Notes: generated from the letters alone by a model not told the origin. DNA of 45,546 nt from Pseudomonadota bacterium (GCA_043771805.1 JAYVGZ010000122.1:1-45546), one strand, 5' to 3'. Positions 18,275-40,344 are shown, numbered from the stretch's first letter. Translations and numbers: made by a program.

Positions 18275-18595
18275 TCATGCCTTAAACTGGTCGCGCCCAG
18301 CGGTAAGGTACTCCATAACCACGATTGTAGCGTCATCACTACCTTGAAGTGCATCTACCGAACTTTGTCTCACCTGTTGGCAGAGCGAGGTGAACTTATC
18401 GATGGCGTCCACTACTCCAGTGCATTCACGACGCACTTCAACTATTTGGTCCCCACCATCGAAACCGCGAAGCCTCTGGAACATCCGCGGACCGTCACTA
18501 CTATTGGCTCCTGTTCGTAACAGGGCCATTCTTATCTCGCAAATCGAACGAGCTCCCAAGTGAAGCATTAACTTTATCGCGCTGCGCTTGAGCAA
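18275..18595 (-). CDS. hypothetical protein, possibly a degenerate C-terminal remnant
   Basis: 106-aa ORF with a TTG start and no family recognised. The tail QGSDDATIVVMEY loosely resembles the terminal DDxT(l/v)vv motif of PP2C/SpoIIE phosphatases. Weak call. Confidence 0.25.
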   Translation of the reverse strand: MLKRSAIKLMLHLGARSICEIRMALLRTGANSSDGPRMFQRLRGFDGGDQIVEVRRECTGVVDAIDKFTSLCQQVRQSSVDALQGSDDATIVVMEYLTAGRDQFKA

Positions 18596-18735
18596 ATGAT
18601 TTCGAGATGTTTCAGCAGGTTACATTATATGCAGTTACCTACTTGGGTGAATTGCTCGGGGCACCGGCACCATAAGGCACCAATGCCGTACGTCCAAGGC
18701 TTTCCACTCAACCTCTCGATTGCTACCTTCCCTAC

Positions 18736-18951
18736 ATGCAAGAAACCGGAGCTGATCGGATTAGTTTATTATTCGAGATGATTGAGTTCGCTGAGCACTC
18801 TCTGCGCCAACAGCTTATCTCGGCGTATCCGGATAGTTCGGAAGGCGAGATAGAGGCTCATATAGCGAGCTGGTATGCGCCAGAGTTGCCGCAGGATCTT
18901 CTTACATGGCAAACGGTAAAGCCTGGTTTTCCGGGAACAGATGAGCGGTAA
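18736..18951 (+). CDS. small acidic protein, first gene of a two-gene TA-like pair
   Basis: 71-aa ORF. Its stop (TAA 18949-18951) overlaps the ATG (18941) of the reconstructed nucleotidyltransferase gene by 11 nt. Confidence 0.5.
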   Translation: MQETGADRISLLFEMIEFAEHSLRQQLISAYPDSSEGEIEAHIASWYAPELPQDLLTWQTVKPGFPGTDER

Positions 18952-19551
18952 GGTTCTACAAAACAACCTAATTGCTCTTTCTACCTTTCTACCTTTCTAG
19001 CTGACCAGCAGGTGAAATTCTGCCTCGTTGGGGGCTTTGCTGTCACTTTCCGCGCAGAGCCGCGATTAACACGTGACATTGATATCGCTCTCATTGCTAA
19101 CGGCGATCAGCATGTCGAAAATATTATACAATCGCTTACACAGTTAGGATGGGTTGCAGAAATACTCCTTGAGAACAAAGCGAGAGGCCTCATCAGTACA
19201 GTTCGTATGATCGATCCCAATTCCGCGCGAAAAATCTATACAGATCTTCTGTTCCATGCATGTGGTATTGAAAAAGAGGTTGTAGAGAGCGCAACCTTAG
19301 AGCTCTTGTTTCCCGATACACGAAAATTGCCAGTTGCATCAGTGCCCTCACTTATAGCCATGAAGTGCTTGTCGCACTCGCCACAACACCGAAGTAAAGA
19401 CTGGGATGACCTGCGAGGACTTGTCTCACGTTCATCCGAGACGCAGAGAGAAGAGGCAGCGAGGATGGTCCGTCTCATCGAGGAGCGAGGTTTTGCGAGA
19501 GGAGTCAATCTGGTCGCAAAGTTGGAAGACATTTTCAATGCTATGAAATGA
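18941..19551 (+). pseudogene. Pol-beta-superfamily nucleotidyltransferase (DUF2204-like) frameshifted by an 8-bp tandem duplication
   Basis: GGFAVTFRAEPRLTRDIDIAL (GG-x-A...R-x-T-x-DID) and SKDWDDL motifs. ATG 18941 reads MSGKVLQNNLIALSTFLPF* and stops at 18998-19000. Removing one ctttctac unit gives MSGKVLQNNLIALSTFLADQQVKFCLVGGFAV... continuous to 19551. Confidence 0.8.
18977..19000. repeat. tandem 8-mer x3 (ctttctac ctttctac ctttctag)
   Basis: Read directly from the sequence. The unit length is not a multiple of 3, so copy number sets the reading frame of the nucleotidyltransferase gene. Confidence 0.95.
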
Positions 19552-24673: not shown

Positions 24674-25738
24674 TCACCGATCGCCCCATTTCAAAAAAGA
24701 GATCGCCCGCGCCTCGCTCCACCTCTCCGGTGACCGTAACCGCTGCAAAAAACCTACATGCCCACCATGACGCGGAGTCTCTAAGAACAGAGACGCATTC
24801 TCTTCGGCCTCTTCACGCGGAAAACACTCCGAACCTAGGAAGGGATCATCCAATGCATTCACCAGCAAAGTCGGAACACGAATCTTCGTCAAAAACTGCC
24901 GCGAACTCTGACTAGTCCAGTAGTGTTGAATCGAATCAAAACCGTGCAGAGGAGCGGTAAATCTACGATCAAATTCGTGGAACGTATTTATTTTATCTAG
25001 TCCGGTTAGATCGACGATACCCGGAAAGCGCACCGCTTTCTCTCGCATGCGCGCACGCAGTGGCGCCAAGAGATACCGCATATAGAGACGGTTACGAAAT
25101 CGAGCGAGTTCATCAGACGCAGAGGTAAGGTCTACCGGTACAGAGAGGGCGAATGCGGATCGTATCTCAGAGGGAGCGTTTTCCCCGGCCTCGCCCAAAA
25201 ATTTAAGGGTAATGTTTCCGCCGACACTGAATCCAACGAGAGAAATTTGAAGATTGTGAGGAGGCAGAGTCTGGTCGCTTGGTTGGGAATGATCCGCCGG
25301 TAGTGCCGGCCAAGGGCGTTGAATAACCCTTTCAATCACAGCGCGCAGGTCTTGCGACTGCCCGCTATGGTACCAACTCAGTAGTCGATTGGGCCGTACG
25401 CCGCACCCCCGCATGTTCCAAGTCAAAACAGTAAGTCCCGCAGAGAGAAGCGACCGCGTGACACCGGTTACGTAGTTACTCGAAACTGAGCCCTCAAGAC
25501 CGTGGGTCACTATGACCAGTCGGCTCAAATCATGACCGGGGTGCCAATACAGCTCTACGAAGTCCCCGTCGGGGAGTTCCAGTACCTCCTCAACCGAGTT
25601 AGGGAGCGCAGGTTGCTTTAGGGTCAAGGGGAGTACCGACTGCAGATCGCCCGAAGTAAGGGGCCAAGGCGGACGGTAGAGGGAATCGATTATTGGCATG
25701 CCGGTGTGGTCTATAGAGACTGTTGCACGAGGTGTCAC
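24674..25738 (-). CDS. alpha/beta hydrolase, YheT-like
   Basis: HGLEGS oxyanion-region motif, nucleophile elbow GFSVGGN, 354 aa. Confidence 0.75.
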   Translation of the reverse strand: MTPRATVSIDHTGMPIIDSLYRPPWPLTSGDLQSVLPLTLKQPALPNSVEEVLELPDGDFVELYWHPGHDLSRLVIVTHGLEGSVSSNYVTGVTRSLLSAGLTVLTWNMRGCGVRPNRLLSWYHSGQSQDLRAVIERVIQRPWPALPADHSQPSDQTLPPHNLQISLVGFSVGGNITLKFLGEAGENAPSEIRSAFALSVPVDLTSASDELARFRNRLYMRYLLAPLRARMREKAVRFPGIVDLTGLDKINTFHEFDRRFTAPLHGFDSIQHYWTSQSSRQFLTKIRVPTLLVNALDDPFLGSECFPREEAEENASLFLETPRHGGHVGFLQRLRSPERWSEARAISFLKWGDR

Positions 25739-25830
25739 AGTTGAGTCACAGTAGCAGAGGCATCATCCTAGCAGCATTCTCATTGCATGGTAGCTCACCG
25801 TTAATTTTAGGTTATTCTCGGTAAAAATAA

Positions 25831-28152
25831 GTGCTCACAAGCGGCTTCACTGATCTCATTGTATGGCTCCTTATTCTTGAGGTCCTGGGTTTCTGTGCAT
25901 TGCCGTACCTCGCTTGGATGCTGCCGAGTGCGACGGATCGTGGATACGGTGTTTCAAAGATATTCGGGATGTTTTGCTTCGGCATTTTGTCGTGGTTTTT
26001 GCCGGCGTGCGGGGTGATCCATGCAACCCGCGCATGGGTCACCATTATTTTCGGAGTGTGCCTTCTACTAGGGTATCGGGGTTTCACCGCGTCACCTGTG
26101 ATTAGGAAGGAGCTTTTCAGCGTTCTAAAAAAGCATGCCTTTTATGTTGAGGGGCTCTTTCTCGGGCTCTCACTCATATTCGCGCTTATTCGCGCGGCGA
26201 ACCCGGAGATCGTGTGGGGCGAAAAGCCTATGGACTCGACGTTTCTTCATTTTTTTACCCGAAATGAGGTACTCCCACCGCAAGATCCTTGGGCGGCGGG
26301 GCACAAGATGAGCTACTACTACGTGGGAATTTACTTTATTGCAGCTCTGCTCAAACTATCAGGGATTCCTGTCGCTATTGGCTACAATCTTGCCATTGCT
26401 TCACTGGCTGGTCTTGTCGCGGCGGCCCTCTACTCTCTTATGGGGCTTATAACCAGAAGCCCACTCTTTTCTTTCCTTGCGGCTTTTTTTATCACTTTCT
26501 CGAGTGATCCAGAGGTGCTCAATTTATGTGTATTGCAACGTCGTCCCGCGAGTTTCGATACCTTTTGGGCGTCCACTAGAGTTTTTACGTCTCCTTTTTT
26601 CTTTGAGTATACCTCGTGGTCTATGTTGTTTGCTGATCTTCATGCGCACGTAATATCGATTCCGTTTACAGTGCTTCTGACAACGTTGAGTGTGGCGCTT
26701 TTCTTGGATGGTGCGGCAAGGTTTACTCGCCACGGGATCGTCTTGCGCATTTCCGCAGGGGCGGTGTGGGGAGCTCTCTACGGTATCAACACATGGGACG
26801 CGATTACATTCGGTTTGGTTCTCCTCATTATACTCCTCCTTGCGCCTATTGCGCCGTTCTGGAAGCCTCCGGCATCACCATCAGGTAACATTCCTCTCTA
26901 CGAAAAAGTTTTCGCTTCTGGATTCGCCCGCGGTGTATCGTTGGTCTGGGACCTTGCTACGATAAGCGTTGGCTTCTTGGTCGTTGCGCTACCGTACGCG
27001 CTCCACTCGGGCGCTCAACAGCAGATATCATGGGGTTGGGCAACTGCACCTGAGTTCAATTCATTGGGACAACTCGTTGGAATGTTGGGGTACTGGTTTT
27101 TTGGACTCCTCTTTGCCTTTGCATTGCTCCTGTCCATCCGAAGTAAGAGCCTGGCCGAGTCAGTTTATTCTCACGGTATGTCTTTAGCGTCTATTGGGAT
27201 TGCTATTGGGAGTGGGATAATTCTTCTTCTGATTTTTTTCTGCCTCCCTTTTTTCAATGCCATTACCGGGGCGACTAACCAACCGTGGGGGATTTTCTCT
27301 ATGGCCGCCTTCCTCGGGGTTGGCAGTTGGTTCTTGCTGTGGCGTGCCTCCACTACGGACGTGCAGAAGGCCGAGCAGAAGGCCGCAGGGCTCTTCGTAA
27401 TTACCGGATCGCTCCTCATCGTCGTTCTTGAAGAGCTCTTTTTGATCGATAGGATGAATACTCTCTTCAAGGGATATCTTGCCGTTTGGATGTTGGTAGC
27501 TGTTGGTTGTTGTGGGGCTATCTTTTACGCTATTCGTGAAGTAAGTCGTCGAGGGCATCGTGCTTCGGCTTTCGTCTGCTCCCTTTTTCCACTTCTTGTT
27601 GTGTGCCTTTCTTTTATTGGCGCGGGGCTCAATATTGCTGGTGTTATTCGAATGCAGCGAGTCCCGACTCGGGATTTCACCTTAGATGGGGCTGCATACC
27701 TTCGGCATTCTGAATCAGCAGACGCAGCAGCTATTGCTTGGCTCAATGCAAACATCACGGGTACGCCGACTGTGCTTGAGGCTCAAGGAGATTCCTACGG
27801 AGAATTCACAAGAATCGCCATGCACTCTGGGCTCCCTACGGTGCTTGGATGGGAGCACCATGTCGGCCAACGAGGACTACCGCACGAGGATCTCGTAAAC
27901 CGAAAACAATCAATACGGCAGCTCTATTCAACCACCGATCTATCGTTTGCCAAAAATCTACTCCTTCAGCACCGTATCGATTTAGTAGTAGTCAGCCTGC
28001 TCGAGCGACAAACATATCCAGCGACCGGCTTAAGTAAATTTGAGACCAATCCGGACGTCTTTATTCCGCTTTATCGTTCTGGTGATGCAGCGATTTATGC
28101 GACGTACTTTTCTACCTATAACCCTGAGTACCGAGGTAATCTGAAGCCATGA
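25831..28152 (+). CDS. DUF2298 / TIGR03662 'Chlor_Arch_YYY' polytopic membrane protein (GT-C-like candidate)
   Basis: GEKPMDSTFLHFFTRNEVLPPQDPWAAGHKMSYYYVG contains the family's DPW...YYY signature. More than 15 TM helices plus a C-terminal soluble domain. GTG start. Confidence 0.75.
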   Translation: MLTSGFTDLIVWLLILEVLGFCALPYLAWMLPSATDRGYGVSKIFGMFCFGILSWFLPACGVIHATRAWVTIIFGVCLLLGYRGFTASPVIRKELFSVLKKHAFYVEGLFLGLSLIFALIRAANPEIVWGEKPMDSTFLHFFTRNEVLPPQDPWAAGHKMSYYYVGIYFIAALLKLSGIPVAIGYNLAIASLAGLVAAALYSLMGLITRSPLFSFLAAFFITFSSDPEVLNLCVLQRRPASFDTFWASTRVFTSPFFFEYTSWSMLFADLHAHVISIPFTVLLTTLSVALFLDGAARFTRHGIVLRISAGAVWGALYGINTWDAITFGLVLLIILLLAPIAPFWKPPASPSGNIPLYEKVFASGFARGVSLVWDLATISVGFLVVALPYALHSGAQQQISWGWATAPEFNSLGQLVGMLGYWFFGLLFAFALLLSIRSKSLAESVYSHGMSLASIGIAIGSGIILLLIFFCLPFFNAITGATNQPWGIFSMAAFLGVGSWFLLWRASTTDVQKAEQKAAGLFVITGSLLIVVLEELFLIDRMNTLFKGYLAVWMLVAVGCCGAIFYAIREVSRRGHRASAFVCSLFPLLVVCLSFIGAGLNIAGVIRMQRVPTRDFTLDGAAYLRHSESADAAAIAWLNANITGTPTVLEAQGDSYGEFTRIAMHSGLPTVLGWEHHVGQRGLPHEDLVNRKQSIRQLYSTTDLSFAKNLLLQHRIDLVVVSLLERQTYPATGLSKFETNPDVFIPLYRSGDAAIYATYFSTYNPEYRGNLKP

Positions 28153-30485
28153 CTCTCATTCTCCTACTGGGATTGATTGCTTTTCTTTGCTTTAGAATTG
28201 CAGCCCCTTTGTTTGAAACGACCTTCTTAATCTTGCTTGTAACGCCCCTACTATGGTTTTTGATCGGGTCGTTTTTGCTTGCTCTTGGTGTTTCTCTTCC
28301 TGGAGGTTCGACTGCGTTTGCAATCTACGCCGCGCTAATACTAGCCCTCATTGGATCGGCGTACCTTTTCTTCGGTGTTTCAAAGAGTAAACGTAGTATC
28401 GAGGATACACTCGCACTCTTCACCTTTGTGCTGGTGTTTTCAGTAGCGTATGCCTTAGCTCTCTCGTGGCCTGATTTCATCGCGATGGGCGAGCGACTCC
28501 GTGACTACTCTCTCCTCGCTTCCTCAATTGACTCGCCGATAATACCAAAAGAACCTTGGATGGCGGGTGCTGTGCTCAACTACTACGTGTATTGGTACCG
28601 CTTTGGTCACTTCCTCTCTTCTACACTCGGCATGCCGGTGTGGGATGTGTACCACCTTATGACTGCTTTCGCGCTTGCGTTCTACAGTGCTGTTCTTTAC
28701 CAGATCGTTCGGTGTGTTCTCGGAGGATCGATTCTAGTGGCGGGCGTTACGTCTGTTGTCGCAGCCTTTGGATCAAATATCGCCGGTTTTCTGCTTTGGA
28801 AACGCGGCGATGATAATTGGTGGGGGCCCTCGCGGGTCGTGAAGGGTGCCATCAATGAGTTTCCTGCGTGGTCATTCATCCTGGGTGATCTTCATCCACA
28901 CTTCCTTAACCTGGGGCTTTTGCCGTTCGGGATTCTTCTTCTTCACCGAATTGTTGCAAGTCGACAAAGTTCCCTCATAGTGGGTGTTTCTACTATACTG
29001 GTATCAGTGCTGGGCATCCTTTGGCTTTTCGCCAGTAACGCTTGGGAAGTTCCCATGTGGGTCGGTTGTATCGGCCTGGTAGCCCTTCTGGCTGCAACAA
29101 AGCGGTGGAGTCTCACCATTCGATGGTTACGAGATCGGCTTAGGGGAATGGCGCCCTTCGATGTCGTCAAGGCCGGCGTGTCTCTCGTAGTTCTATTCGC
29201 TGGTATCGTGAGTGTTGCTCTGTTAGGAGCGCAGAATTCATTTACTCTCAGTACGGTAGTTATTCTCGGAGCCGTTGCGTTCTTTTGTGCGTTCTTCCCC
29301 TATAAGACTGAGCTCGTTCCGTGGGTACGTTCAGCCCTCTCTGATCGGCGATGTCTGAGTCTTGTAGTCTTTGGTGGTATTTTGGCTCTCGCATTACGGC
29401 TCTCTAGCCGTCACATTGTGCCTGAGGGCGGGGCGTTGCATTTTGTTCGCTCTCCGATAGAGGTTACCCAAACATCAGAGCTCTTTCTCCATTGGGGCTT
29501 TCCACTTACGTTAGCTACGCTCGGCTCCTTATTCCTTCTCCGTCGCAATTCCGTTCGGCTGGTATGCTTGGCGTTGATAGGGTGCACTCTCCTGTTTGAT
29601 AAGGGCGCACTGTTTTTATTTGCACTCGGCAGCCTGCAGGTCATACGACTGATGTCGGTCGATCGACGGAGTCGCGAAATGTTTTGGGAAAATATCTTTG
29701 GTGATGCTCTCTTACTTGGTGGGCTTGGTCTTGTATTCCTTCCCGAGATTCTATTTCTCGACGATGCCTACGGTGGAGAGAATGAGCGCATGAACACCAT
29801 ATTTAAGATCTACACCACATCGTGGGCACTTCTTATGCTCGGTGCCGTTAGCGTTTTTACGCGCGGACTTACCGCGGTTTGCTACACCGCGCAGGGGTGG
29901 CCGCGGCTGCCAGGACTTCTTGCTTCTTGTGGATGGGCAACAGCAGTGGTTTCCATGGTTGTGACGCTCCCGTTTTTTTATCATGCAGCAAAGTTGCGAA
30001 TGCCGCGTACTAACATTGCGTCGATCGTGCCGGCTTCCGAAGGGTTATCAGAGCTCGATCAACGCTTTCCTGGTTCCGTAACAATTGTTCGAAAATTGCG
30101 GGAGGAGTCGAAAGGGGTTGTCCTTGAAGCGCAGGGTAATGCCTACGACTACACCTCATTCGTATCCACTCTGGCGTCCCAAACAGCCTTTCTCGGTTGG
30201 GCAAATCACATTAATTTGCTGACGAAAAAATTTAAGGAGGTGTCCGGTCAAGGGGAGGTGAGCCGCGAAGTTTCTCGGCGGGAGCAGGTTACGGACGCCT
30301 TCTACCTTAATTCCTCTTGTTTCAGCCGGCTCGCGACTGCTCGGGAGGAAGGGATATCGTTTGTCGTCATTGGATCAAAAGAGGTGCAAAAGTATCCGCA
30401 ACTTAGAAGTGCTGATTTTTCCTGCTTTACTGAACTAGCAAAGGATAGAGAGTACCGTCTATTTTCGACGACCATGACGCCTTAG
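28149..30485 (+). CDS. second DUF2298-family polytopic membrane protein (divergent paralog)
   Basis: GERLRDYSLLASSIDSPIIPKEPWMAGAVLNYYVYWYRFGH matches the same N-terminal signature. ATGA overlap with the upstream paralog. 778 aa. Confidence 0.7.
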   Translation: MTLILLLGLIAFLCFRIAAPLFETTFLILLVTPLLWFLIGSFLLALGVSLPGGSTAFAIYAALILALIGSAYLFFGVSKSKRSIEDTLALFTFVLVFSVAYALALSWPDFIAMGERLRDYSLLASSIDSPIIPKEPWMAGAVLNYYVYWYRFGHFLSSTLGMPVWDVYHLMTAFALAFYSAVLYQIVRCVLGGSILVAGVTSVVAAFGSNIAGFLLWKRGDDNWWGPSRVVKGAINEFPAWSFILGDLHPHFLNLGLLPFGILLLHRIVASRQSSLIVGVSTILVSVLGILWLFASNAWEVPMWVGCIGLVALLAATKRWSLTIRWLRDRLRGMAPFDVVKAGVSLVVLFAGIVSVALLGAQNSFTLSTVVILGAVAFFCAFFPYKTELVPWVRSALSDRRCLSLVVFGGILALALRLSSRHIVPEGGALHFVRSPIEVTQTSELFLHWGFPLTLATLGSLFLLRRNSVRLVCLALIGCTLLFDKGALFLFALGSLQVIRLMSVDRRSREMFWENIFGDALLLGGLGLVFLPEILFLDDAYGGENERMNTIFKIYTTSWALLMLGAVSVFTRGLTAVCYTAQGWPRLPGLLASCGWATAVVSMVVTLPFFYHAAKLRMPRTNIASIVPASEGLSELDQRFPGSVTIVRKLREESKGVVLEAQGNAYDYTSFVSTLASQTAFLGWANHINLLTKKFKEVSGQGEVSREVSRREQVTDAFYLNSSCFSRLATAREEGISFVVIGSKEVQKYPQLRSADFSCFTELAKDREYRLFSTTMTP

Positions 30486-30525
30486 TCATCGATAAGCGAC
30501 GGGATAAAATAACGTGCCTCGGTTC

Positions 30526-31599
30526 CTACTGCGGTAACAGTTGCGAGCGGCGTAACAAACTAGCTATTTCTTCAGCCGCTAGTCGGTGCCCGGCAATAGA
30601 AAAATGACGGTCTGAGGTAGTGTACAGTTCTTCAGAGGCTCGCGATCGAAACAGCTGCGTGAGGTTTACTGCCGGGAGTGCAGTGCTTCCCGCTATAGCC
30701 ATCGCAAGGTTCTCGTTTGTTTCATAGAGTTCAGGAGGAACACCTTCGACTTTTAGACGAGAGTCGTCCTGCACAATTTCAAAGGACGGAACAATGACGA
30801 ATGCAACGGATATGCCGTTCTTCTTTAGTAGCACCACCCCCTCGGTGATGAGTCGTTGAACCAAAGGAACACCGATCGCCCTATAGCGCTCGCTAGGGTC
30901 CGTCAAGATATGTGTATGATCCTGAAAAAAAGTGCTGTCGATCATCTTCTCGACGGTCGGCGATAGGAAGCTGCCATACCGAAACATGTTGTAGGCAAGA
31001 TTCAGACGAAAAGTCGGTACGTGATTGGTCACGTAGTTATCTACTCTTGGCTGGAGGGAGTTGTCGGCGGAGATTTCGTAGAGGTGATCGTTTACTACGT
31101 CCCCGAAATCGTTCCCCGCAAAAATGCTCCAGATTACAAGATCTGGGTGAAGTCGCAGAACATCCTCTTGAATGACCACGTACTCCTGATCCGGTCCGTA
31201 GCCGGTAATTCCAAGATTAAAGACCTCATATCCCTTGCCGAGCTGCTGCTCTAACTGCTTCGGAAACGTTTCTGTGGGTTCAACAGCTAACCCCATGGGA
31301 AACGAATCTCCGATAACGACTATACGGTAGGTGCCAGGGCGCTTTGCCCCGAATTCGCGATCTCGGTACCCCCAAGAATTGATAGAACGATTGGGCCAGG
31401 GCTTGACGCGGTACAAGCGCTGTCTGTCCAACTCAATACGAAGTGCCCCACGACCTTCGGGAAGACCTTTAAGTTGAATTAAATATGAGGCGTTGAACCC
31501 CCAGACCCGGAGAGAAAACTCACACATGCCAAGACTAAGCACCGTTATGCAGCACCATTTCAGGACGAAACGACCTGTGCTCTTCATGCCTGGTCGCAT
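30526..31599 (-). CDS. membrane-anchored SGNH/GDSL hydrolase
   Basis: Block I VVIGDSFPMG, block III AGNDFGD, block V SDRHFS (DxxH), and an N-terminal TM helix. The start was placed at the internal Met (31599) to avoid overlapping the upstream gene; the track ORF starts at 31680. Confidence 0.65.
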   Translation of the reverse strand: MRPGMKSTGRFVLKWCCITVLSLGMCEFSLRVWGFNASYLIQLKGLPEGRGALRIELDRQRLYRVKPWPNRSINSWGYRDREFGAKRPGTYRIVVIGDSFPMGLAVEPTETFPKQLEQQLGKGYEVFNLGITGYGPDQEYVVIQEDVLRLHPDLVIWSIFAGNDFGDVVNDHLYEISADNSLQPRVDNYVTNHVPTFRLNLAYNMFRYGSFLSPTVEKMIDSTFFQDHTHILTDPSERYRAIGVPLVQRLITEGVVLLKKNGISVAFVIVPSFEIVQDDSRLKVEGVPPELYETNENLAMAIAGSTALPAVNLTQLFRSRASEELYTTSDRHFSIAGHRLAAEEIASLLRRSQLLPQ

Positions 31600-31610
31600 G
31601 AAGGGCCACC

Positions 31611-33653
31611 CTATTTTATAAATCGTGATGTGTCCTTGGCTGTTAAAACTGTAGCATACGTGAATCCAGAGCTGTTCCACGGGTAATGATTAATGGAAAA
31701 GCGCAGAAACTTCCGTAGCGTCATCTGAGTAAAATCGGGGACCCACCATCCGCGAAGATTAACCGTTCGAGAGTAATATCCTTCGGGAACATCTCCCGGT
31801 GTAGGGGTCTCTTTAAAATCTTGTACAATGTAGGTGAAGTTCTTCTTTTCTTCAGGGGTTGCTGAGAAGCGGTATTCATTTGGAAGATGCCGAAAGTACC
31901 ATGTGAGCGGCCAGGTACCCTCGCCAGACACAAGTACCTTTGGTTTGTAGGCATTGCGCTCAAAAGAAACCTCCTCGACGACTTTCTTGGCGAAGTCTGC
32001 GATCTCATAGGTCGTATGTACTTGGCTCAGGTACTCGGTCTCTTTCCCCGCATACTGAAAATTAGTTTGGATTGATGCTCGGAGCATAAACAAGAACACA
32101 ACAATAGTTATAACGCGGCCTACGTTGAATCTGCCGAGATAGTTTCCGACGTAGTTGAAGAGTGCGCATATAACAAGAATCGCACCGAATGCAAGAAAGC
32201 CAAGGTTTTCGACAACAGTCGGAGCGCCAAGACTAAACTTCTGATTCGACCACTCAGTCCACTCTTCCAGAATGAAAAAAATACCAAAAATCATGCTGGC
32301 CATGCCCAGCCACAAGAAGGCCCGCTGAATGGGGTACCGTTTGTAGTCGACTGGATAGCGTTGAAAGTAATCCTGGAAGAAGAGCGTAAGGTACGGCAGT
32401 GAGTAGATCAATGGATAGAGGGTCAGCCATGGTACTTTCTCTCCGAGATAGCTGTATACGTAGAAGGTGGCGGAGAAAAAGTATGCGCAGGTCGCGAGCC
32501 CAAACTCTTTTCGGAGAAGATGGTGAACAGTGACTATTGGTGCATGAAACAGCAGAATAAAAAGACCCACTAGATCGTAGTAGTCTTTGAGTTTAAAAAA
32601 GCGCCAAACAGGCACCTGCTTTAGTTCAGAGCCCGAGGTTATGAGGCATGAGAGAATAAGACCAAATGCAACCATTGCGCCGACCATCTGAATCTCGGGG
32701 CGAGTTCTGCGATAAAAGAGGCACAGGTGCGTGATGAAGGCGACGAGAAGTGGAAGTTCGTACCAGCCAAGCACATAGAGGTGAAAGTTGAATGGGCCCT
32801 CAATGCGCTCCATTTCATGATGTTTTTGCCAATATTCGAATCCCTTTTGGCCGAGCCCTTCGATAATTCCCTCTGGATATCGGAACCCGGCGCTGTAAAA
32901 CCAGCAGTACACCAGAGCGGCAAAAATGAATGACCAGCACACTTCCCAGGGGTAAGTGGAGATATAAGCAACAAATCGCTCAGCTATGGATTTCTTTTCA
33001 CCTGGAAAAAATACAAATCGGAAAAGAGTTTCGAATGCGAGGTAACCGAAAAAGATAGCGACAGTTACGAACAAATTTTCTTTCGTGCACCACTGTATCG
33101 CGAGCCCGAGGCAAAACCAGAAAGCTTTCATCCTGGGCGGCGCAAGAAGGCAGCCGTATACGACCATCAGCATGCCTGAAATTACCCAGTAATCCTCTCG
33201 CAGGAAGCGCGACCAGTAAACGAGGGTCGGAGACAAAGCAACAAAAGCAGTGAGTATTAGAACTGTGGGCTTTTTGAAGAACTGGCGAAACAGGAGTGGA
33301 ATGAACAAAAACGCTGAGCCCATCAGGCATACAGGCACACGAGCCGCCCATAGTGAATCCCCAAAAGTAGCGTAAATAAGGCGCATGCTGTTGTACAGCA
33401 TCGGGCCGTGGAGCATCGGATCGTATTTGTAGAAATTACTATTAGGCCAGTCGTAGAAATAACGACCGTACATGCCGTGGAGTGATTCGTCGTGATGGTA
33501 GGGGCGCATATCGAGGAGCGTCCACCGAAGCAGGAGCCCGGCTACAATCAGGGCTGCGTAAAGCAACCATTCTGCAGCGGAAAAATACGAGGAGAGGCCT
33601 GTGCGATCAGGGGAACCCTCTGTGACATTTGTAGAAGTATCGGCATTATTCAT
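31611..33653 (-). CDS. TIGR03663 / Agl23-like polytopic membrane protein (GT-C-like)
   Basis: The N-terminal loop MRPYHHDESLHGMYGRYFYDWPNSNFYKYDPMLHGPMLY matches the HHDE...Y-x-YDP-x-HGP signature I recall for this family. 680 aa, about 14 TM helices. Confidence 0.65.
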   Translation of the reverse strand: MNNADTSTNVTEGSPDRTGLSSYFSAAEWLLYAALIVAGLLLRWTLLDMRPYHHDESLHGMYGRYFYDWPNSNFYKYDPMLHGPMLYNSMRLIYATFGDSLWAARVPVCLMGSAFLFIPLLFRQFFKKPTVLILTAFVALSPTLVYWSRFLREDYWVISGMLMVVYGCLLAPPRMKAFWFCLGLAIQWCTKENLFVTVAIFFGYLAFETLFRFVFFPGEKKSIAERFVAYISTYPWEVCWSFIFAALVYCWFYSAGFRYPEGIIEGLGQKGFEYWQKHHEMERIEGPFNFHLYVLGWYELPLLVAFITHLCLFYRRTRPEIQMVGAMVAFGLILSCLITSGSELKQVPVWRFFKLKDYYDLVGLFILLFHAPIVTVHHLLRKEFGLATCAYFFSATFYVYSYLGEKVPWLTLYPLIYSLPYLTLFFQDYFQRYPVDYKRYPIQRAFLWLGMASMIFGIFFILEEWTEWSNQKFSLGAPTVVENLGFLAFGAILVICALFNYVGNYLGRFNVGRVITIVVFLFMLRASIQTNFQYAGKETEYLSQVHTTYEIADFAKKVVEEVSFERNAYKPKVLVSGEGTWPLTWYFRHLPNEYRFSATPEEKKNFTYIVQDFKETPTPGDVPEGYYSRTVNLRGWWVPDFTQMTLRKFLRFSINHYPWNSSGFTYATVLTAKDTSRFIK

Positions 33654-33681
33654 ATTACGTCACCATCGAGTCAGGTGTATT

Positions 33682-34710
33682 TCAACTATGGGGCGATCTG
33701 TTCGGCTGTTCGGGGGCACTTTTCGGGCCAAGCGGCTCGCCCTGAACGCGGTCGATTAAATACAGCGGGCGTCGTTGCCCCTGTTCAAAAATACGACCGA
33801 CGTATTCTCCGAGTATTCCGAGGAACATAAGCTGCACTCCGCCAAGGAGGAGAATAGAGGCCATTAACGAGGTGTATCCTGAGTAGTTGATACCTAAGAT
33901 CTTTAAGATGATAACAACTATGATGTATAGAAAGGCGAAAGCAGAGGTGATTACCCCCATATAGGACGCTAGCCGCAGAGGGGCGTAGGTGAATGAAGTG
34001 ATCGCATCAACTGCGAGAAAGAGCGATTTACGAAAAGGGTACTTCGTCGTGCCGGCGAATCGTTCAGGTCGATTGTACGGTAGTGCGATCTGATGGTACC
34101 CGATCCATGAAACCATTCCTCGCACAAAGCGGTGACGCTCTTTGAGGGACTGAAGAGCATCCACTGCCCTGCGGTCCATGAGTCTGAAGTCCCCGGTATC
34201 CCGAGGAACGTGCAGCCCGGCGATATGCTCAAAGATCCGATAGAAGGCAAAGGCAAAGAAACGCTTCGCCCATGATTCTCCGAATCTCGTTTGCCGCTGT
34301 CCGTATACAACGTCGTAGCCGGCCCGCCATTGAGCAAGCATATCTGGAATAAGTTCTGGTGGGTCCTGTAAGTCTGCATCAAGGATTACGACAACTTCAC
34401 CGCGGGTTTGGTCGAGGCCGCACGTAATAGCGGTTTGATGGCCGAAATTCCGCGCCAGGCGAACGGCTTTAATGAAGGGAAGTTCTTCAGCAAACGTGCA
34501 GATAATGGGCCAAGTCGTGTCTTTGCTACCGTCGTCGATCAGCACTATTTCAAAGGGAAATTTGTAAGACGCCACAATTTCGGCTAGCCGACGCTTCAGC
34601 TCGGGTAGGACTTCCTCTTCGTTGAAGCAGGGAATGACGAGCGATAGGCTTTGGGGATCTCGATCCCTCGGCACTCTTAGTAAGCTTTGCTTGCTGATTA
34701 CGTCCGTCAC
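33682..34710 (-). CDS. GT2 polyprenyl-phosphate glycosyltransferase (ArnC/GtrB/DPM1-like)
   Basis: LSLVIPCFNEEE, IDDGSKDTT, DADLQDPPELIP, and two C-terminal TM helices. Confidence 0.85.
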   Translation of the reverse strand: MTDVISKQSLLRVPRDRDPQSLSLVIPCFNEEEVLPELKRRLAEIVASYKFPFEIVLIDDGSKDTTWPIICTFAEELPFIKAVRLARNFGHQTAITCGLDQTRGEVVVILDADLQDPPELIPDMLAQWRAGYDVVYGQRQTRFGESWAKRFFAFAFYRIFEHIAGLHVPRDTGDFRLMDRRAVDALQSLKERHRFVRGMVSWIGYHQIALPYNRPERFAGTTKYPFRKSLFLAVDAITSFTYAPLRLASYMGVITSAFAFLYIIVVIILKILGINYSGYTSLMASILLLGGVQLMFLGILGEYVGRIFEQGQRRPLYLIDRVQGEPLGPKSAPEQPNRSPHS

Positions 34711-35154: not shown

Positions 35155-36306
35155 ATGAATTCAGAACAGCCAAATTGTGCACGGTGTGGGGTAGCGAATT
35201 CAGCTGGAGCGAAGTTCTGCTCAGCGTGTGGAAGAAGCCTCTTCGTAAAGTCACTTTCTCAGATTCTACTGGGGCTTTCAGGTCGGCAAGCCGTTACCCT
35301 TCTTTCGACTGTAGCCCTGGCCTTCGGTTCTGCTTACGGCCTCCAAAGCTACAACCACTTCAGGCGCGGAGTCGAAAAACCGACAGAGGACTATCAACCT
35401 CCTGCGAACGGCGGGCAGCCACCCGCTGGGCACCCAGGGTCCGCCGCACCGGTAAAGGATGATCCTGAACTTGCTGCCCTGAGGGCTGCTGCTGAGAAGG
35501 AGCCGCAGGATCTAAAAAAACTGAGGGCTTTTGCAGGCGGTCTTGCTGATCGATTGCGCAGTAATCCCGAGGCGCCGCCGCAGCTAGCTTTTGATGCTAT
35601 TGATACCTTGAGTCGGATACTTCAGGTCCTTCCCGAAGATGCTGAAAGTCTCGTAATGATGGCTGATGTCTCGTTTGATCAACGGGCGTTCAACAAGGCG
35701 CTTGAATTTTATCAGCGTTATCTCAAATTACAGCCGGACGACGCAGGAGCTCGTGCAAGGTATGCAAGCACCCTTACATTCCTTGGCAAATACGACGAGT
35801 CGATCCGTGAATTGGATGGGATACTCGAAAAAGACCCGAAAAATTTCCCAGCGATGGCCTACTTAGCAATTACTTACGCCCAGCAGGGAAAAATGGATAA
35901 GGCGAAAGAGTTGGGAGCTACGGCACTTTCAATCGCGCCAACAGATGAGGCGAGGGCGCGGTTTTCTGCGTTTGTAACTTCTCTCGATTCGGCGGAAATC
36001 AAGGGGCCTGCTGAGGAGGCACCGAGAGGACAAACTGCACCACGCGGAGTGCCACTGATTATTTCTGCGATTCAGAATAACCCAATTGCAGGGCAAAAGT
36101 TTGTTCGTTTTGAAGATAAGGATCCCGCGGTTCTGCGGCTGTATTTCAAAGATTTTCCAATGCAGGCGATGCCGCCATTTGCGAAGGAGAAGTTCTACTC
36201 AGGAATTAGAGCGAAGGTGAAAGAAGCGCAGCTAGCAACCTTGAAAGAGATTCAATTTCTGGATGCAGATTCCGGACTTGAATTGGATAAGTTGGGGATT
36301 GAATAG
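35155..36306 (+). CDS. zinc-ribbon, single-TM, TPR-repeat protein
   Basis: N-terminal CARCG...CSACG zinc ribbon, one TM helix, a Pro/Ala-rich linker, then TPR-like repeats (ALEFYQRYLKLQPDDAGARARYASTL...). Confidence 0.75.
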   Translation: MNSEQPNCARCGVANSAGAKFCSACGRSLFVKSLSQILLGLSGRQAVTLLSTVALAFGSAYGLQSYNHFRRGVEKPTEDYQPPANGGQPPAGHPGSAAPVKDDPELAALRAAAEKEPQDLKKLRAFAGGLADRLRSNPEAPPQLAFDAIDTLSRILQVLPEDAESLVMMADVSFDQRAFNKALEFYQRYLKLQPDDAGARARYASTLTFLGKYDESIRELDGILEKDPKNFPAMAYLAITYAQQGKMDKAKELGATALSIAPTDEARARFSAFVTSLDSAEIKGPAEEAPRGQTAPRGVPLIISAIQNNPIAGQKFVRFEDKDPAVLRLYFKDFPMQAMPPFAKEKFYSGIRAKVKEAQLATLKEIQFLDADSGLELDKLGIE

Positions 36307-37015: not shown

Positions 37016-37636
37016 TTACGCCCATGTAAGGGATGCTAGCCACCCGCCAAAGAGGGTAATGCAAGAGAGCAGTTTTGCAGCAAAGGGCAACCTCGACGAT
37101 TTCTTGATAGTACCTGTTCGATCGAATTCAGACCAAATGGTGAAGAAAACCATTCCGATCCATGACCAGAAAAATAGTTGGGCTACTACCTGGAACGGGA
37201 AATTTACCGTCGGAGCGTGCGCCTCTCTGACGATGCTCGATGGAGTGGGGGCGAGGAGAGTCATTTCATTCTCGACCTGTTCAATGGGGACTCCGTTCCA
37301 AGCCCCGGGTAAGAACCACCACATTGAGCGGGACACGAAAAGCCCGCGCTTAAGCTGTTCGAGACATTCGAGACGAACCGCAGAAGCTCTACTTTCTTGG
37401 CGACAGAGAATGAACAGTTCGTGAGAACTTTCTGCAGCGAAAGAGTTATAAGGTGTGCGCCAGGAGATCGATGACCGGTAGGCGGTTATCGCTCCGTCCA
37501 CGTCACCTTTTGCTAGTCCCTCTCGGGCGGAATGAAGGAACAACCGTGATTCGTAGTATGGGCGTAACAAAACGGGGGCCGCCAGAACGAGCACCAAGCA
37601 AAGAGTAGAGAGTAATCTAAGTGGGATAGATTTCAA
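37016..37636 (-). CDS. membrane protein of unknown function, last gene of the GT2/TMTC-like operon
   Basis: 206 aa with an N-terminal TM or signal helix, a soluble middle and two C-terminal TM helices. Lies 11 nt downstream of the TMTC-like gene. Confidence 0.55.
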   Translation of the reverse strand: MKSIPLRLLSTLCLVLVLAAPVLLRPYYESRLFLHSAREGLAKGDVDGAITAYRSSISWRTPYNSFAAESSHELFILCRQESRASAVRLECLEQLKRGLFVSRSMWWFLPGAWNGVPIEQVENEMTLLAPTPSSIVREAHAPTVNFPFQVVAQLFFWSWIGMVFFTIWSEFDRTGTIKKSSRLPFAAKLLSCITLFGGWLASLTWA

Positions 37637-37647
37637 TGAGGCACGAT

Positions 37648-39300
37648 TTAGGGGCTAGCGTTTAATTGTAGATCTTTCCAGCGAGTAGTTAAATTTAAAA
37701 ACTCACTAGTATCAGGCGTAAGTCTTGAAAGTCGAGCGTAAATCTCGTCATAGCGATATTTATCTTTGCGCTCTACGGCTAACGCAAGTAATCCGGTTAA
37801 AGCCTCAACGTTGTTGGGGTCAAGGGCAACAGCTTGCAAAAAAAGCTTCTCAGCGTTTTCGAGTTCGCCTCGGTTCGCGTAAATACGCCCGAGAAGTTGA
37901 AGACTTGGTGTGTGAGAGGCATTTATTTTGAGGGCCTCATGAAGCCAGTGCTCAGCCCCAGCGGTGAGTCCTTTTTGTGTGTAGATTGAAGCGAGCCCGA
38001 AGGCAGCATCAGCGTACTGAGGATACATCGCTAGCGCTGCTCGAAGGCGTGCTTGGCTTCCGTCAAGGTCTCCCTGGTTACGAAGAAGAATACCGTAATT
38101 GAGCTGAGCCTTAACGCTGTTCGGCGATGCTTCTATCTGGTGCGAAAAGAGAGCTGCATTATCCCGCCATAGAGGGATGGTCCACCACGTAACGGCGAGA
38201 TATCCGAAGGCGATAGGCGGGCCCAGCCGACTCCAGCTCGATTGAGCCACTAAAGAGACGAAAGTGAGGACTAGACCAACACTTGGTGCATACAGTAAAC
38301 GCTCACCAAAGATTGTACCGATGGGGAAGAAAATGTTTGAAGTTAAAGCAAATGCGGTCAGAAACCAGAGGGTTCCAAGTCGGGTTACATGAACGCGAAA
38401 GGCTAGTAGGAAAAGAAGCGCGCAAACTCCGCTGTATCCAATTAGCCAAAGTAGAGAGTTCGATGGGAGAAGAGATCCGTACGAGTAATCGGAACCAAGG
38501 CCATAGGGAACAAAAGTGATAGTGATATACCTTCCAAGAAGGGCAAACGCTGCAAGGGAGCGAAACGGCTGTTGTAGGAGTAGCAGCGGGTTATCCAGCG
38601 GATCTATTGCGGCCGCAGAGATGAGCGCAGTATTCAATGCATAGAATCTAAGGGAGCCGAAGCTAAGCACTGCGAGCATAAGGGCTGCTGAGTAGCGAAC
38701 TCGGTGACGTCCCGCACAGTACAGAATGAGTACTCCCCAAAGCGCCCCGTTCTCCTTGCTACACATTGAGAGCGCATAAAGGAGCGACGATGGAGCGATT
38801 CTGAGCCATGACACTTTAGAATGAGCCTCATTAGCTTTCTGCGAAAGCAGAACTGCAGTCAGTCCGAATGCAGCCGAAAGCAATTCAGCACGACCTGTAA
38901 CATTAGCAACTACTTCACCGTGAACCGGCAAAGTGCACCAGATTAAGGTGCTGAGGAACGCAACGGTGAGGGGTACGAGCCTTTGCAGGACACCAAATGC
39001 GAGCACGGTTACAACGACATGGAGGAGAATGTTCGTGGCGTGGTGTGGTAACGGATTTTTACCAGCCCACAGATACAGTAATCCGTTCGACAGAACCGTA
39101 ACAGGTCGGTAGAGGTTGCCGGGAAAGATCGGATGAAGTAGTGCCGCGAGCAACTCTTCTGGCTGCCGAATCGTAGGGTTGTTAACGATATGGATAAAAT
39201 CGTCTAGGGCGAAGCTGTTGGTCAGGGAGGGAATGAAAGCGACGAGAGAAGCAAAGATGAGAGAGAGGTACTGAATTTTGGTGGGATTTTGCGTACTCAC
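37648..39300 (-). CDS. TMTC-like GT-C membrane glycosyltransferase with C-terminal TPR repeats
   Basis: N-terminal FALDDFIHIVNNPTI...YRPVTVLS...HHATNILLH motif typical of bacterial TMTC/DUF1736-like proteins. About 11 TM helices, then TPR repeats (YGILLRNQGDLDGSQARLRAALAMYPQYADA...). Confidence 0.7.
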   Translation of the reverse strand: MSTQNPTKIQYLSLIFASLVAFIPSLTNSFALDDFIHIVNNPTIRQPEELLAALLHPIFPGNLYRPVTVLSNGLLYLWAGKNPLPHHATNILLHVVVTVLAFGVLQRLVPLTVAFLSTLIWCTLPVHGEVVANVTGRAELLSAAFGLTAVLLSQKANEAHSKVSWLRIAPSSLLYALSMCSKENGALWGVLILYCAGRHRVRYSAALMLAVLSFGSLRFYALNTALISAAAIDPLDNPLLLLQQPFRSLAAFALLGRYITITFVPYGLGSDYSYGSLLPSNSLLWLIGYSGVCALLFLLAFRVHVTRLGTLWFLTAFALTSNIFFPIGTIFGERLLYAPSVGLVLTFVSLVAQSSWSRLGPPIAFGYLAVTWWTIPLWRDNAALFSHQIEASPNSVKAQLNYGILLRNQGDLDGSQARLRAALAMYPQYADAAFGLASIYTQKGLTAGAEHWLHEALKINASHTPSLQLLGRIYANRGELENAEKLFLQAVALDPNNVEALTGLLALAVERKDKYRYDEIYARLSRLTPDTSEFLNLTTRWKDLQLNASP

Positions 39301-39378
39301 ATCAGTCCGAAGTGTCGTCTTGCATTGGCAGCGATCGTAAGGCGCTTCCGTTCTTTGAACAAGGCGGCAATCGACGAG

Positions 39379-40344
39379 CTAATGAATCTGTCCATGCGCC
39401 GATCGTTCATGAGCGCGGGCCATTTCAGCCACGTCCTTGTACTTCTCTGTTTCTTCAACAGAGAAAAGCCGGTCTCCGCGCTCTAATCGCATAGAGGCGA
39501 TTTGCTCAGCGATTAATCCCAACATAAAGATGATGATCGAGGAATTGATCAATAGGTGGGACATATTGGTGAATCGGCCCATCGTTGAAAACGTATAGAT
39601 GTAGCGGAATATTCCGCAGAAGAAGAGAAATGAACTCACGGGGAGAAACACTCTCAAGGGAGAAAATGACATCGCAATCTTGGTGATGATGAGGAGAAAC
39701 TCGAAGCCATCAGAGAGAATGCGGATCTTGCTCGTGCCAATTCGAAACCGGGTCTTTATCGGAACGTATGCGACTGAGCGGCCAGACCTGATAAAAGCAA
39801 GTGTCGACGTTGTCGGATACGAAAAACGGTTCGGAAACATATCGCAGAATCGAAGGGCGTCTTCCCGGCGCATGACGCGAAAGCCACTTGTGAGGTCATG
39901 AATTTCGAAGTCAGCGATGAACGAAGCGAATGTGTTGTAGAAGATATTGGCCATGTCTCGGTGCCAGTGGCTTTCTGACCCCTTGGTACGAGCGCCGACG
40001 ACCATGTGAAATTTATCGATTAGTGCGACCAGTCGAGGGATGTCGTTCGGTTCGTGTTGCCCGTCACCGTCCATAAACAGCAGCACTTTTCCGTTCGACC
40101 CGCGAATGCCCGTCTTTACCGAGGCTCCATTGCCAATATTGTAAGGGTGAGAAATAACGCGCGCCCCAGCCGTTTGGGCCACTTCTCGTGTGTGATCGGT
40201 GCTTCCGTCGTCTACAACCAGCAGTTCAAAACTAGCTAAATTTAGGGCAAGGATAGCCTCAATGGTTTGACCGATAACACGATCTTCATTGTAAGCTGGT
40301 ATAATGATAGATAGTAATGGGGCTTCTGGGCCTGTACTCGTCAT
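39379..40344 (-). CDS. GT2 polyprenyl-phosphate glycosyltransferase (DPM1/GtrB-like)
   Basis: LSIIIPAYNEDR, VVDDGSTDHT, FMDGDGQHEPNDIPRL, and C-terminal TM helices. Confidence 0.85.
   Translation of the reverse strand: MTSTGPEAPLLSIIIPAYNEDRVIGQTIEAILALNLASFELLVVDDGSTDHTREVAQTAGARVISHPYNIGNGASVKTGIRGSNGKVLLFMDGDGQHEPNDIPRLVALIDKFHMVVGARTKGSESHWHRDMANIFYNTFASFIADFEIHDLTSGFRVMRREDALRFCDMFPNRFSYPTTSTLAFIRSGRSVAYVPIKTRFRIGTSKIRILSDGFEFLLIITKIAMSFSPLRVFLPVSSFLFFCGIFRYIYTFSTMGRFTNMSHLLINSSIIIFMLGLIAEQIASMRLERGDRLFSVEETEKYKDVAEMARAHERSAHGQIH

Follow-up and report, generated by a model that had tools for sequence, protein, structure and literature searches.

We have analyzed a stretch of 45,546 nucleotides (nt) from a Pseudomonadota bacterium (GCA_043771805.1, JAYVGZ010000122.1:1-45546), the whole of which we call the window, and within it a cluster of five genes at positions 25,831-34,710. 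The host is an uncultured, predatory-type member of the Bdellovibrionota. Two of the genes encode YYY1 and YYY2, large membrane proteins of family DUF2298 (TIGR03662), and they are accompanied by genes for a protein of the Agl23 family (TIGR03663), a glycosyltransferase of family GT2, and an SGNH-type esterase or acyltransferase. We consider it probable, with some reserve, that the cluster specifies an extracytoplasmic glycosylation system of the three-component type, which would use a lipid-linked monosaccharide as donor and would be built on an uncharacterised family of GT-C-fold proteins. We propose this function because DUF2298 and TIGR03663 proteins adjoin a GtrB-type synthase, and because DUF2298 is fused to PMT-like domains elsewhere.

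The arrangement of the genes is given in Table 1. An earlier note, made by reading this DNA without any database search, had described two tandem, translationally coupled polytopic proteins converging on a minus-strand operon for a GT2, a 680-amino-acid (aa) protein and an SGNH hydrolase, and all of these open reading frames (ORFs) are found where it placed them. The start of YYY2 overlaps the stop of YYY1 by 4 nt (ATGA). The minus-strand operon runs from GT2 to Agl23-like to SGNH with gaps of 28 nt and then 11 nt, and it meets the YYY1-YYY2 pair across a 40-nt gap (30486-30525), in which a hairpin was sought and none was found. The SGNH ORF as listed, from a GTG at 31680, overlaps the upstream Agl23-like gene by 70 nt. 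Its real start is the ATG at 31599, 11 nt past the Agl23-like stop and with GGTGG ahead of it, and the 357-aa protein read from this ATG is the exact NCBI/ENA sequence (P0241), which lies on a contig of 45,546 bp; the window is thus a complete contig of a metagenome-assembled genome.

Table 1. Genes of the cluster and its two flanking genes, with coordinates counted from the first letter of the window.
Gene	Coordinates	Strand	Length	Description
YYY1	25831..28152	+	773 aa	DUF2298/TIGR03662 polytopic membrane protein; predicted GT-C-fold glycosyltransferase
YYY2	28149..30485	+	778 aa	Divergent DUF2298 paralog; probable partner subunit of YYY1
SGNH	30526..31599	-	357 aa	Membrane-anchored SGNH/AlgX-like esterase or O-acyltransferase; last gene of the operon; lineage-specific accessory
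Agl23-like	31611..33653	-	680 aa	TIGR03663 (Agl23 family); GT-C fold; HHDES motif
GT2	33682..34710	-	342 aa	GtrB-type polyprenyl-phosphate glycosyltransferase; first gene of the minus-strand operon
YheT/ABHD-like alpha/beta hydrolase	24674..25738	-		Divergent from YYY1 (92-nt gap); probable accessory; Pfam Abhydrolase_1/6
Zinc-ribbon + TM + TPR protein	35155..36306	+	383 aa	Divergent from GT2; Pfam TPR families, Zn_Ribbon_1

The enzyme class of the GT2 protein can be assigned securely from its sequence, as a polyprenyl-phosphate GT2 of the GtrB/ArnC/DPM1 type. It aligns over its full length with the Synechocystis GtrB sll0501 (PDB 5EKP), with residues 21-324 corresponding to GtrB 27-331 (9.4e-88, 298 bits), and it also matches ArnC (172 bits) and Glycos_transf_2 (115 bits). 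A DAD motif stands at residues 111-113, and two transmembrane (TM) helices at the C-terminus (251-269 and 282-300). Because the protein misses the NCBIfam equivalog cutoffs for PgfS (281 vs. 500 bits) and for ArnC (188 vs. 529 bits), the class is assigned without a sugar specificity. Orthologs 77-80% identical are found in the same operon of relatives. Given its close homology to GtrB, there is good reason to propose that the GT2 loads a sugar onto a polyprenyl phosphate.

The Agl23-like protein scores 225 bits (cutoff 126) with TIGR03663, the model named "flippase activity-associated protein Agl23", and weakly with PMT_2 (28 bits). Its AlphaFold2 (AF2) model has a predicted local distance difference test (pLDDT) of 84.2 and a predicted TM-score (pTM) of 0.86. 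Every Foldseek match at E <= 0.001 is a GT-C (9/9), and the best one is ArnT (7e-5, TM-score 0.54), followed by STT3, ALG12/ALG9, and Pmt4/PMTs. Invariant in 29 homologs are H53, H54, D55, E56, S57, H59, H82, G83, P84, R149, and R152, where D55-E56 lie 9 residues past TM1 and resemble the DE motif of the PMTs. The TIGRFAMs description of TIGR03663 includes an invariant DE dipeptide, an HGP tripeptide, and two Arg residues near the N-terminus. From sequence and fold together, the Agl23-like protein could be either a transferase dependent on a polyprenyl-phosphate sugar or a translocation factor for the lipid-linked sugar. As for the family, purified Agl23 was able to translocate a lipid-linked oligosaccharide when placed in liposomes, and a role as flippase for a dolichyl phosphate (Dol-P) hexose was suggested for it (PMC11182771); the organism described there is Haloarcula hispanica, and not Haloferax as the earlier note had it.

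Regarding the DUF2298 pair, YYY1 reaches 373 bits with TIGR03662 (3.5e-111; cutoff 300) and 221 bits with PF10060 (cutoff 27.8). YYY2 reaches 167 bits with PF10060 and 187 bits with TIGR03662, and because it passes the Pfam cutoff and misses the TIGR03662 one, we take it to be a divergent paralog. The models of the expected families thus match all three large proteins of the cluster. From an alignment of 28 sequences, AF2 gave a model of YYY1 with a pLDDT of 85.7 and a pTM of 0.90. The eight best Foldseek matches of this model among solved structures are all GT-C, seven of them at E <= 0.001, with DPY19, AglB, STT3A, AftA, and Pmt4 among them (probability 0.97-1.0). When the YYY1 and Agl23-like models are taken together, their GT-C matches have TM-scores of 0.27-0.54 and identities of 10-15%. 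The GT-C core that the earlier note expected in three proteins is found in the two that were modeled, YYY1 and Agl23-like, while conserved acidic residues in a predicted first periplasmic loop are present in all three. The model points to DUF2298 having a GT-C fold, and with it a putative glycosyltransferase activity.

The motifs quoted in the earlier note are all present: PPQDPWAAGHKMSYYYVG at YYY1 149-166, PKEPWMAGAVLNYYVYWY at YYY2 133-150, HHDESLHG and YKYDPMLHGP in the 680-aa protein, DDGSKD and DADLQD in GT2, and GDS/GNDF/DRH in SGNH. In YYY1, the motif Y162-Y163-Y164-V-G166 (YYYxG) is invariant in 28 homologs, and so are E131, D135, D152, E259, D269/H271/H273, D323, E534, D540, and W674/H677. 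All of these residues but E259 and E534 fall in longer conserved patches, namely G130-E131-K-P-M-D135, P-P-x-D152-P-W, D269-x-H271-x-H273, N320-x-W-D323, D540-R-M-N-T-x-F-K, and, within a C-terminal alpha/beta domain at about residues 610-773, G673-W674-x-x-H677. The two DUF2298 proteins have 13-16 predicted TM helices. When the helices of the AF2 model are oriented by the positive-inside rule, both termini of YYY1 would be outside, the conserved residues and the C-terminal domain would be periplasmic, and the cytoplasmic side would have the Arg/Lys-rich loops 88-101, 293-300, 448-451, 504-516, and 574-583. In this topology, the first long periplasmic loop (124-164), carrying the GE-D135, D152-P-W, and YYY motifs, would come after helix 4 (92-123), and helices 4-16 would form a 13-helix core like that of PglB and ArnT, in which helix 4 would take the place of the canonical GT-C TM1.

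The two paralogs were compared in an alignment of 17 YYY1-type and 14 YYY2-type sequences. YYY2 retains the periplasmic-side residues E115/D119, E135-P-W, D247/H249/H251, E300, E533, and D539. The counterpart of the YYY motif is YYVYW, of which YY alone is conserved in the YYY2 lineage, and YYY2 lacks the D36/G38/S42/K43 motif of YYY1, which is predicted to be cytoplasmic. Because YYY2 keeps nearly all of the conserved periplasmic-side residues of YYY1, both paralogs look catalytically competent, as far as residues can tell. They are ancient paralogs that probably act as a hetero-oligomeric GT-C; an obligate two-subunit pair is suggested because YYY1 and YYY2 stand side by side here and are fused elsewhere.

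A profile search of 1.84 billion representatives gives 5,936 DUF2298 clusters (50% identity) at E <= 1e-10, and the TIGRFAM description places DUF2298 in Archaea as well. We observe five architectures: stand-alone proteins of about 700-790 aa; proteins with a 230-aa N-terminal extension; a PMT_2-like GT-C joined to DUF2298, of about 1300 aa; this form extended by an NHL propeller at the C-terminus, of about 1900 aa; and an N-domain, two consecutive DUF2298 domains, and TPRs (2400-2750 aa). The giant fusions thus contain the same kinds of domains that the window encodes in separate genes, for a PMT_2-type GT-C, two DUF2298 proteins, and a TPR protein. Membership of the fused PMT_2-like N-domain in the Agl23-like family was considered and rejected, as its hidden Markov model (HMM) has no match to the Agl23-like protein at E <= 10; judged by sequence, the domain is a PMT_2 clade other than TIGR03663. 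The same HMM weakly matches (25 bits) a PMT-like protein encoded at 6926-8752, the window protein closest to the N-terminal GT-C domain of the fusions.

The structural matches of YYY1 also bear on a different role for the pair, that of an oligosaccharyltransferase (OST) or ligase which moves a preassembled glycan en bloc from a polyprenyl pyrophosphate to protein or lipid, with GT2 and Agl23-like adding a terminal hexose afterwards. AglB and STT3 are among the best matches, and the C-terminal periplasmic alpha/beta domain of YYY1 is OST-like, with an invariant GW-x-x-H/QRG patch. GT4 genes are present in the window, and one related locus has a Wzm/Wzt ABC-transporter-dependent glycan cluster upstream. 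Terminal hexose addition has a precedent in AglD/AglR/AglS of Haloferax (PMC3871713). On the other hand, neither WWDYG nor a sequon-binding motif could be aligned, and the sequences show no similarity to STT3/PglB. Two enzymes with monosaccharide donors, AftA and DPY19, match equally well or better. The Wzm/Wzt neighborhood was seen in a single locus, and the neighbor that recurs is a GtrB-type synthase. We rate en bloc transfer as quite unlikely, and the use of a monosaccharide donor as the better account of the pair.

How the cluster recurs in other genomes is a second kind of evidence. That TIGR03662 and TIGR03663 co-occur is already stated in the TIGRFAM descriptions of the two families. 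Closest to the window are metagenome-assembled genomes of uncultured freshwater Bdellovibrionota, with a YYY1 identity of at most 48% and a SecA identity of 76-81%. In loci L002, L003, L007, L009, L013, L014, L015, L017, and L027 (YYY1 identity 33-50%), the order is SecA-HemW, a hydrolase gene in reverse, and YYY1-YYY2, converging on an operon of GT2, an FAD oxidoreductase, and Agl23-like, with a zinc-ribbon/TPR gene divergent beyond GT2. Where a Bdellovibrionota-like locus extends far enough downstream, a YYY2-type ORF nearly always comes directly after the YYY1-type one. Of the Bdellovibrionota-like loci that span 12 kb or more, 19 of 22 have at least two DUF2298 ORFs, 12/22 an Agl23-like gene, and 7/22 a polyprenyl-phosphate-type GT2. 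For Acidobacteriota loci of this size, these three counts are 9/14, 8/14, and 5/14; for Binatia, 4/4, 0/4, and 0/4; and for Chloroflexota, which have mostly lone fusion proteins, 1/16, 1/16, and 0/16.

As an example from another phylum, the Acidobacteriota locus L039 contains within 15 kb an SGNH gene (399 aa), a PMT_2-DUF2298-NHL fusion (1649 aa), an alpha/beta hydrolase, an FAD oxidoreductase, a DUF2298 protein (696 aa), and an Agl23-like gene that overlaps by 4 nt, with a PMT_2+PA14 protein and a GT2 alongside, in an order different from that of the window. Because the set recurs shuffled in another phylum, this argues for the DUF2298/Agl23-like set being a functional module as opposed to inherited synteny. 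The earlier note had envisaged a conserved five-gene neighborhood. The genes are indeed co-localized in related genomes, but the five do not form a conserved unit, the SGNH gene being variable. The linkage to SecA-HemW was considered and discarded as a functional one: it is limited to the close clade, and neither L083 nor L021 has it. In L083, which has the closest relative of the YYY pair (YYY1 82% identical), SecA/HemW are replaced upstream of the pair by an ABC-transporter-dependent glycan cluster (L083 1-8245) with Wzm, a Wzt with a Wzt_C domain, a CmcI-type methyltransferase, and large GT2-methyltransferases.

The same comparison allows us to weigh whether DUF2298 proteins are transferases at all, or GT-C-shaped transporters, scramblases, or scaffolds for polyprenyl-linked intermediates, in which case the adjacency of the two convergent operons would reflect only envelope housekeeping or inherited synteny. 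DUF2298 has no known activity, the SecA-HemW-hydrolase-YYY order of the close clade shows that part of the conserved order is simple inheritance, and translocation of a lipid-linked oligosaccharide in liposomes has been reported for the Agl23 family, which is GT-C-shaped as well (PMC11182771). A gene set shuffled in another phylum goes beyond inherited synteny, however, and such a role fits poorly with invariant acidic and His clusters in predicted periplasmic loops of both paralogs and with the fusions that join DUF2298 to a PMT_2 GT-C domain or to TPR/NHL modules of the periplasm. We regard this explanation as very improbable.

For the preferred reading, a glycosylation system with a lipid-linked monosaccharide donor, which upholds most of what the earlier note had inferred, we propose a mechanism of four steps. 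The GtrB-like GT2 would move a hexose or N-acetylhexosamine from a nucleotide sugar to undecaprenyl phosphate or another polyprenyl phosphate at the cytoplasmic face. The lipid-linked sugar would then reach the periplasmic face, and the co-transcribed Agl23-like protein is the candidate for translocation factor, for donor-consuming GT-C with a DE motif, or for both. The cluster shows no gene for a flippase of the GtrA, SMR, or MATE kind, and no small polytopic GtrA-like ORF was found on inspection of the ORFs of at least 40 aa in 34.7-37.7 kb and of the larger ORFs, with no GtrA HMM scan of small ORFs; the Agl23-like protein may substitute for the small flippase. YYY1 and YYY2 would transfer the sugar to an envelope acceptor by means of conserved acidic residues of the periplasmic loops: GE[KR]xxD and [DE]PW, both in the loop that follows the helix taken as canonical TM1, together with DxHxH. 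Finally, variable accessory enzymes (the periplasmic SGNH protein, the cytoplasmic YheT-like hydrolase, and the FAD enzyme in relatives) might edit the donor or the product, in a manner which by analogy would be comparable to that of ArnD, DprE1/E2, and ORF13 acting on lipid-linked sugars.

Among these accessory enzymes, the SGNH protein matches ALGX with 44.8 bits (cutoff 26.5) in its C-terminal part, covering model positions 29-134 of 268 only, and Lipase_GDSL_2 with 30.8 bits, just under the cutoff of 32.9. Blocks I, II, III, and V read VVIGDSF, GITGYG, FAGNDF, and SDRHF, and this sequence would fit an esterase or an acyltransferase. Because a positively charged N-terminus is followed by a hydrophobic anchor, the catalytic domain is probably periplasmic. 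In Bdellovibrionota, SGNH belongs to the cluster only in the window and in the close relatives L084/L085, after the Agl23-like gene (Agl23-like 93% and SGNH 75% identical to those of the window), and SGNH genes of about 400 aa flank DUF2298 fusions in Acidobacteriota. SGNH as an obligate partner of DUF2298 is an idea that we tried and rejected, as homologs 50% and 35% identical occur in other contexts: the former adjoin a GT87 GT-C, a GT2, and a methyltransferase, and the latter a hydrolase and a TPR gene. Nor does SGNH fill the slot of the FAD oxidoreductase, which lies between GT2 and Agl23-like, whereas SGNH comes after Agl23-like.

That oxidoreductase, a PRK07233-type FAD amine-oxidase/HpnE-like enzyme (482 bits), occupies its position in most relatives, for instance at L003 16676-18040, with orthologs in L002, L007, L009, L013-L015, L017, and L027, and also in L034, L039, and L064. 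It adjoins DUF2298 in Binatia and Acidobacteriota; a gene of this type was looked for in the window and none is present. The enzyme could edit the lipid-linked sugar or the polyprenyl carrier. The YheT-like hydrolase (179 bits with NCBIfam PRK10985, under the cutoff of 267) holds the same position in about 13 Bdellovibrionota loci, which makes it a commoner partner than SGNH, and homologs 31-35% identical lie directly downstream of a DUF2298 fusion in the Acidobacteriota loci L038, L039, and L052. The zinc-ribbon/TPR gene has the same divergent position in L003, L013, L014, L017, L084, and L085 (identities of at least 45-47%), which makes it, too, a more regular neighbor than SGNH, and its product is possibly an adaptor or regulator of the system.

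What the acceptor is can be approached from the fusions and the fold. We lean toward a protein acceptor because of the TPR and NHL fusions and because the nearest structural matches modify proteins (DPY19, OST, PMT). A glycan or glycolipid is nearly as likely because of the ArnT-like fold, the PA14 neighbor, and one O-antigen-like neighborhood (L083). NHL-repeat beta-propellers are found at the C-terminus of DUF2298 fusions in Schekmanbacteria and Acidobacteriota (L022, L035, L039, P0355), and a PMT_2 protein with a PA14 domain (L039 721-5034) lies near a DUF2298 fusion; propellers and PA14 may both be clues to how the acceptor is recognized.

A more specific proposal would have lipid A, the lipopolysaccharide (LPS) core, or another envelope glycolipid or polysaccharide as the acceptor, in a modification of surface charge or serotype like those of Arn/Flm/Rgt or Gtr instead of protein glycosylation, with two paralogs for two acceptor positions. 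The lipid A of Bdellovibrio has mannose in place of phosphate, and we know of no enzymes to which this mannose has been assigned. Structurally, the Agl23-like protein matches ArnT best, and ArnC is a strong relative of GT2; the SGNH, YheT-like, and FAD enzymes resemble the editing of donor or product in the Arn and decaprenyl-phosphate arabinose (DPA) pathways, and a carbohydrate-binding PA14 domain is carried by the PMT_2 neighbor in L039. The usual target of three-component systems, O-antigen (PMC11127046), also speaks for such an acceptor. Both DUF2298 and TIGR03663 also occur in Chloroflexota, however, and by their TIGRFAM descriptions in Archaea, and Chloroflexota and Archaea have, to our knowledge, no LPS; moreover, fusion to TPR or NHL repeats is found more typically where proteins are recognized, and genes for lipid A or core are absent from the window. 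All in all, we find this proposal unlikely.

The glycosylation system that we favor has several known relatives in kind. The three-component concept is that of PMC11127046, and an archaeal parallel, AglD/AglR/AglS, is that of PMC3871713. The Gtr systems (GtrA/GtrB/Gtr*) of Shigella and Salmonella, and those for O-antigen side chains in Klebsiella and Citrobacter (PMC11127046), likewise combine a GtrB-type synthase with polytopic GT-C-fold proteins, presumably periplasmic, and optional donor-editing enzymes. The cluster differs in that no GtrA/SMR/MATE gene was seen in it, in having three GT-C-fold proteins instead of one, in that its DUF2298 and TIGR03663 families have no CAZy family, and in not lying inside an O-antigen locus. 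Agl22/Agl23 of Haloarcula hispanica and AglD/AglR/AglS of Haloferax volcanii share with it a GT2 lipid-phosphate hexose synthase next to a TIGR03663 protein, and the archaeal Dol-P-hexose branch of N-glycosylation shares the order of synthesis at the inner face, translocation, and GT-C transfer outside; here, the host is bacterial, the carrier presumably undecaprenyl phosphate, and AglB is absent. The ArnC/ArnD/ArnEF/ArnT pathway is alike in its GT2 (172-188 bits with ArnC), in the closeness of the Agl23-like model to ArnT (TM-score 0.54), and in the candidate donor-editing hydrolase, but the ArnC equivalog score is 188 vs. 529 bits, the ArnA/B/D/E/F genes are absent, and the ArnT-family models do not match. 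The putative YYY pair recalls Pmt1-Pmt2 and EmbA-EmbB as two paralogous GT-C-fold subunits, adjacent here and fused in other lineages, without any sequence relationship to them.

Several observations weigh against our interpretation. The similarity of YYY1 to solved GT-Cs is at the level of the fold only (TM-scores 0.27-0.50, about 11-14% identity), and profile searches of the YYY1 and Agl23-like alignments against PDB sequences give nothing at E <= 1. An hhalign comparison of the DUF2298 and Agl23-like alignments finds no similarity (probability 0.2%), because of which we count DUF2298 as GT-C by fold only. That E131/D135 match the catalytic first-loop acid of PglB, ArnT, and PMT would be a prediction of the model. 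As the earlier note had stated, DUF2298 has no demonstrated biochemical activity: a literature search for DUF2298, TIGR03662, TIGR03663, PF10060, and 'YYY domain' found nothing functional. The only experimental work on Agl23 (PMC11182771) treats the protein as a flippase for lipid-linked sugars and not as a transferase; therefore, the role of the Agl23-like protein as one of three GT-Cs using the donor, which the earlier note had assumed, is uncertain, though the PMT-type DE motif is kept. In terms of gene content, we identified neither a dedicated flippase nor a gene for sugar-nucleotide synthesis or for an acceptor. The Agl23-like gene is missing within 10 kb in about a third of the Bdellovibrionota loci, and GT2 in more of them, and the Chloroflexota DUF2298 fusions stand without Agl23-like or GT2 partners.

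DUF2298 spans several bacterial phyla without a known activity, and the cluster gives a concrete hypothesis on residues, donor class, and partners that can be addressed by mutation. In addition, TIGR03663/Agl23 is central to a debate on flippase or transferase. The general logic of a lipid-linked sugar and a GT-C is already textbook, and the host is uncultured; we regard the cluster as a well-founded prediction of a familiar type of system and not of a new principle. Its confirmation would bring a new GT-C family and possibly, in little-studied phyla, a new class of surface glycoconjugate. A bolder form of the proposal, which we offer tentatively and hold to be rather doubtful as a whole, is that DUF2298 founds a new GT-C family, in which an obligate two-paralog enzyme, with a bacterial Agl23-type protein supplying the flipped polyprenyl-phosphate hexose, makes a novel envelope glycoconjugate common to Bdellovibrionota, Acidobacteriota, Binatia, Chloroflexota, and Archaea (e.g., protein glycosylation on exported proteins), with lineage-specific editing by the FAD oxidoreductase or by SGNH/YheT esterases.

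Other glycosylation genes are found elsewhere in the window, which has five GT-C-like membrane proteins. A second likely lipid-linked-sugar module lies nearby, at 37016-40344 (-) and 41049-42191 (+). It starts with GT2b (39379-40344, 321 aa), which has two C-terminal TM helices and whose best NCBIfam matches are AglJ, PgfS, PpgS, and Dol-P-hexose transferases. Next comes a 550-aa polytopic protein (37648-39300) with 'ALDDF' after TM1 and C-terminal TPRs, TMTC/PMT-like by eye only, whose N-terminal half has no match among PDB sequences. The module continues with a 206-aa membrane ORF and a GT4, and L084 has the same order. At 6926-8752 (+), a PMT-family GT-C (Pfam PMT, 38 bits) is overlapped by a GT4 gene (8731-9981, +), and a PMT and GT4 pair is also present upstream in L002.

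A scan for promoters was uninformative, with 4 promoter-like sites vs. 9.9 expected, and a search for tRNA and Rfam elements found none. The AT skew is strongly negative, about -0.26, across 25500-30500, and only over the two DUF2298 genes; the simplest explanation is that hydrophobic residues are encoded by T-rich codons on their coding strand. The stretch 16103-19551 encodes a MutS domain-V-only protein (511 aa) and, beyond some 1.4 kb that lack any long ORF, a short AbiEii-like nucleotidyltransferase toxin ORF (179 aa, against a model of 238 positions); it may be what is left of a degraded toxin-antitoxin or defence locus. At its left end (145-4588), the window carries the cytochrome c maturation genes CcmF, CcmA, CcmB, and CcmC-like, which are syntenic with L003 and unrelated to the cluster.

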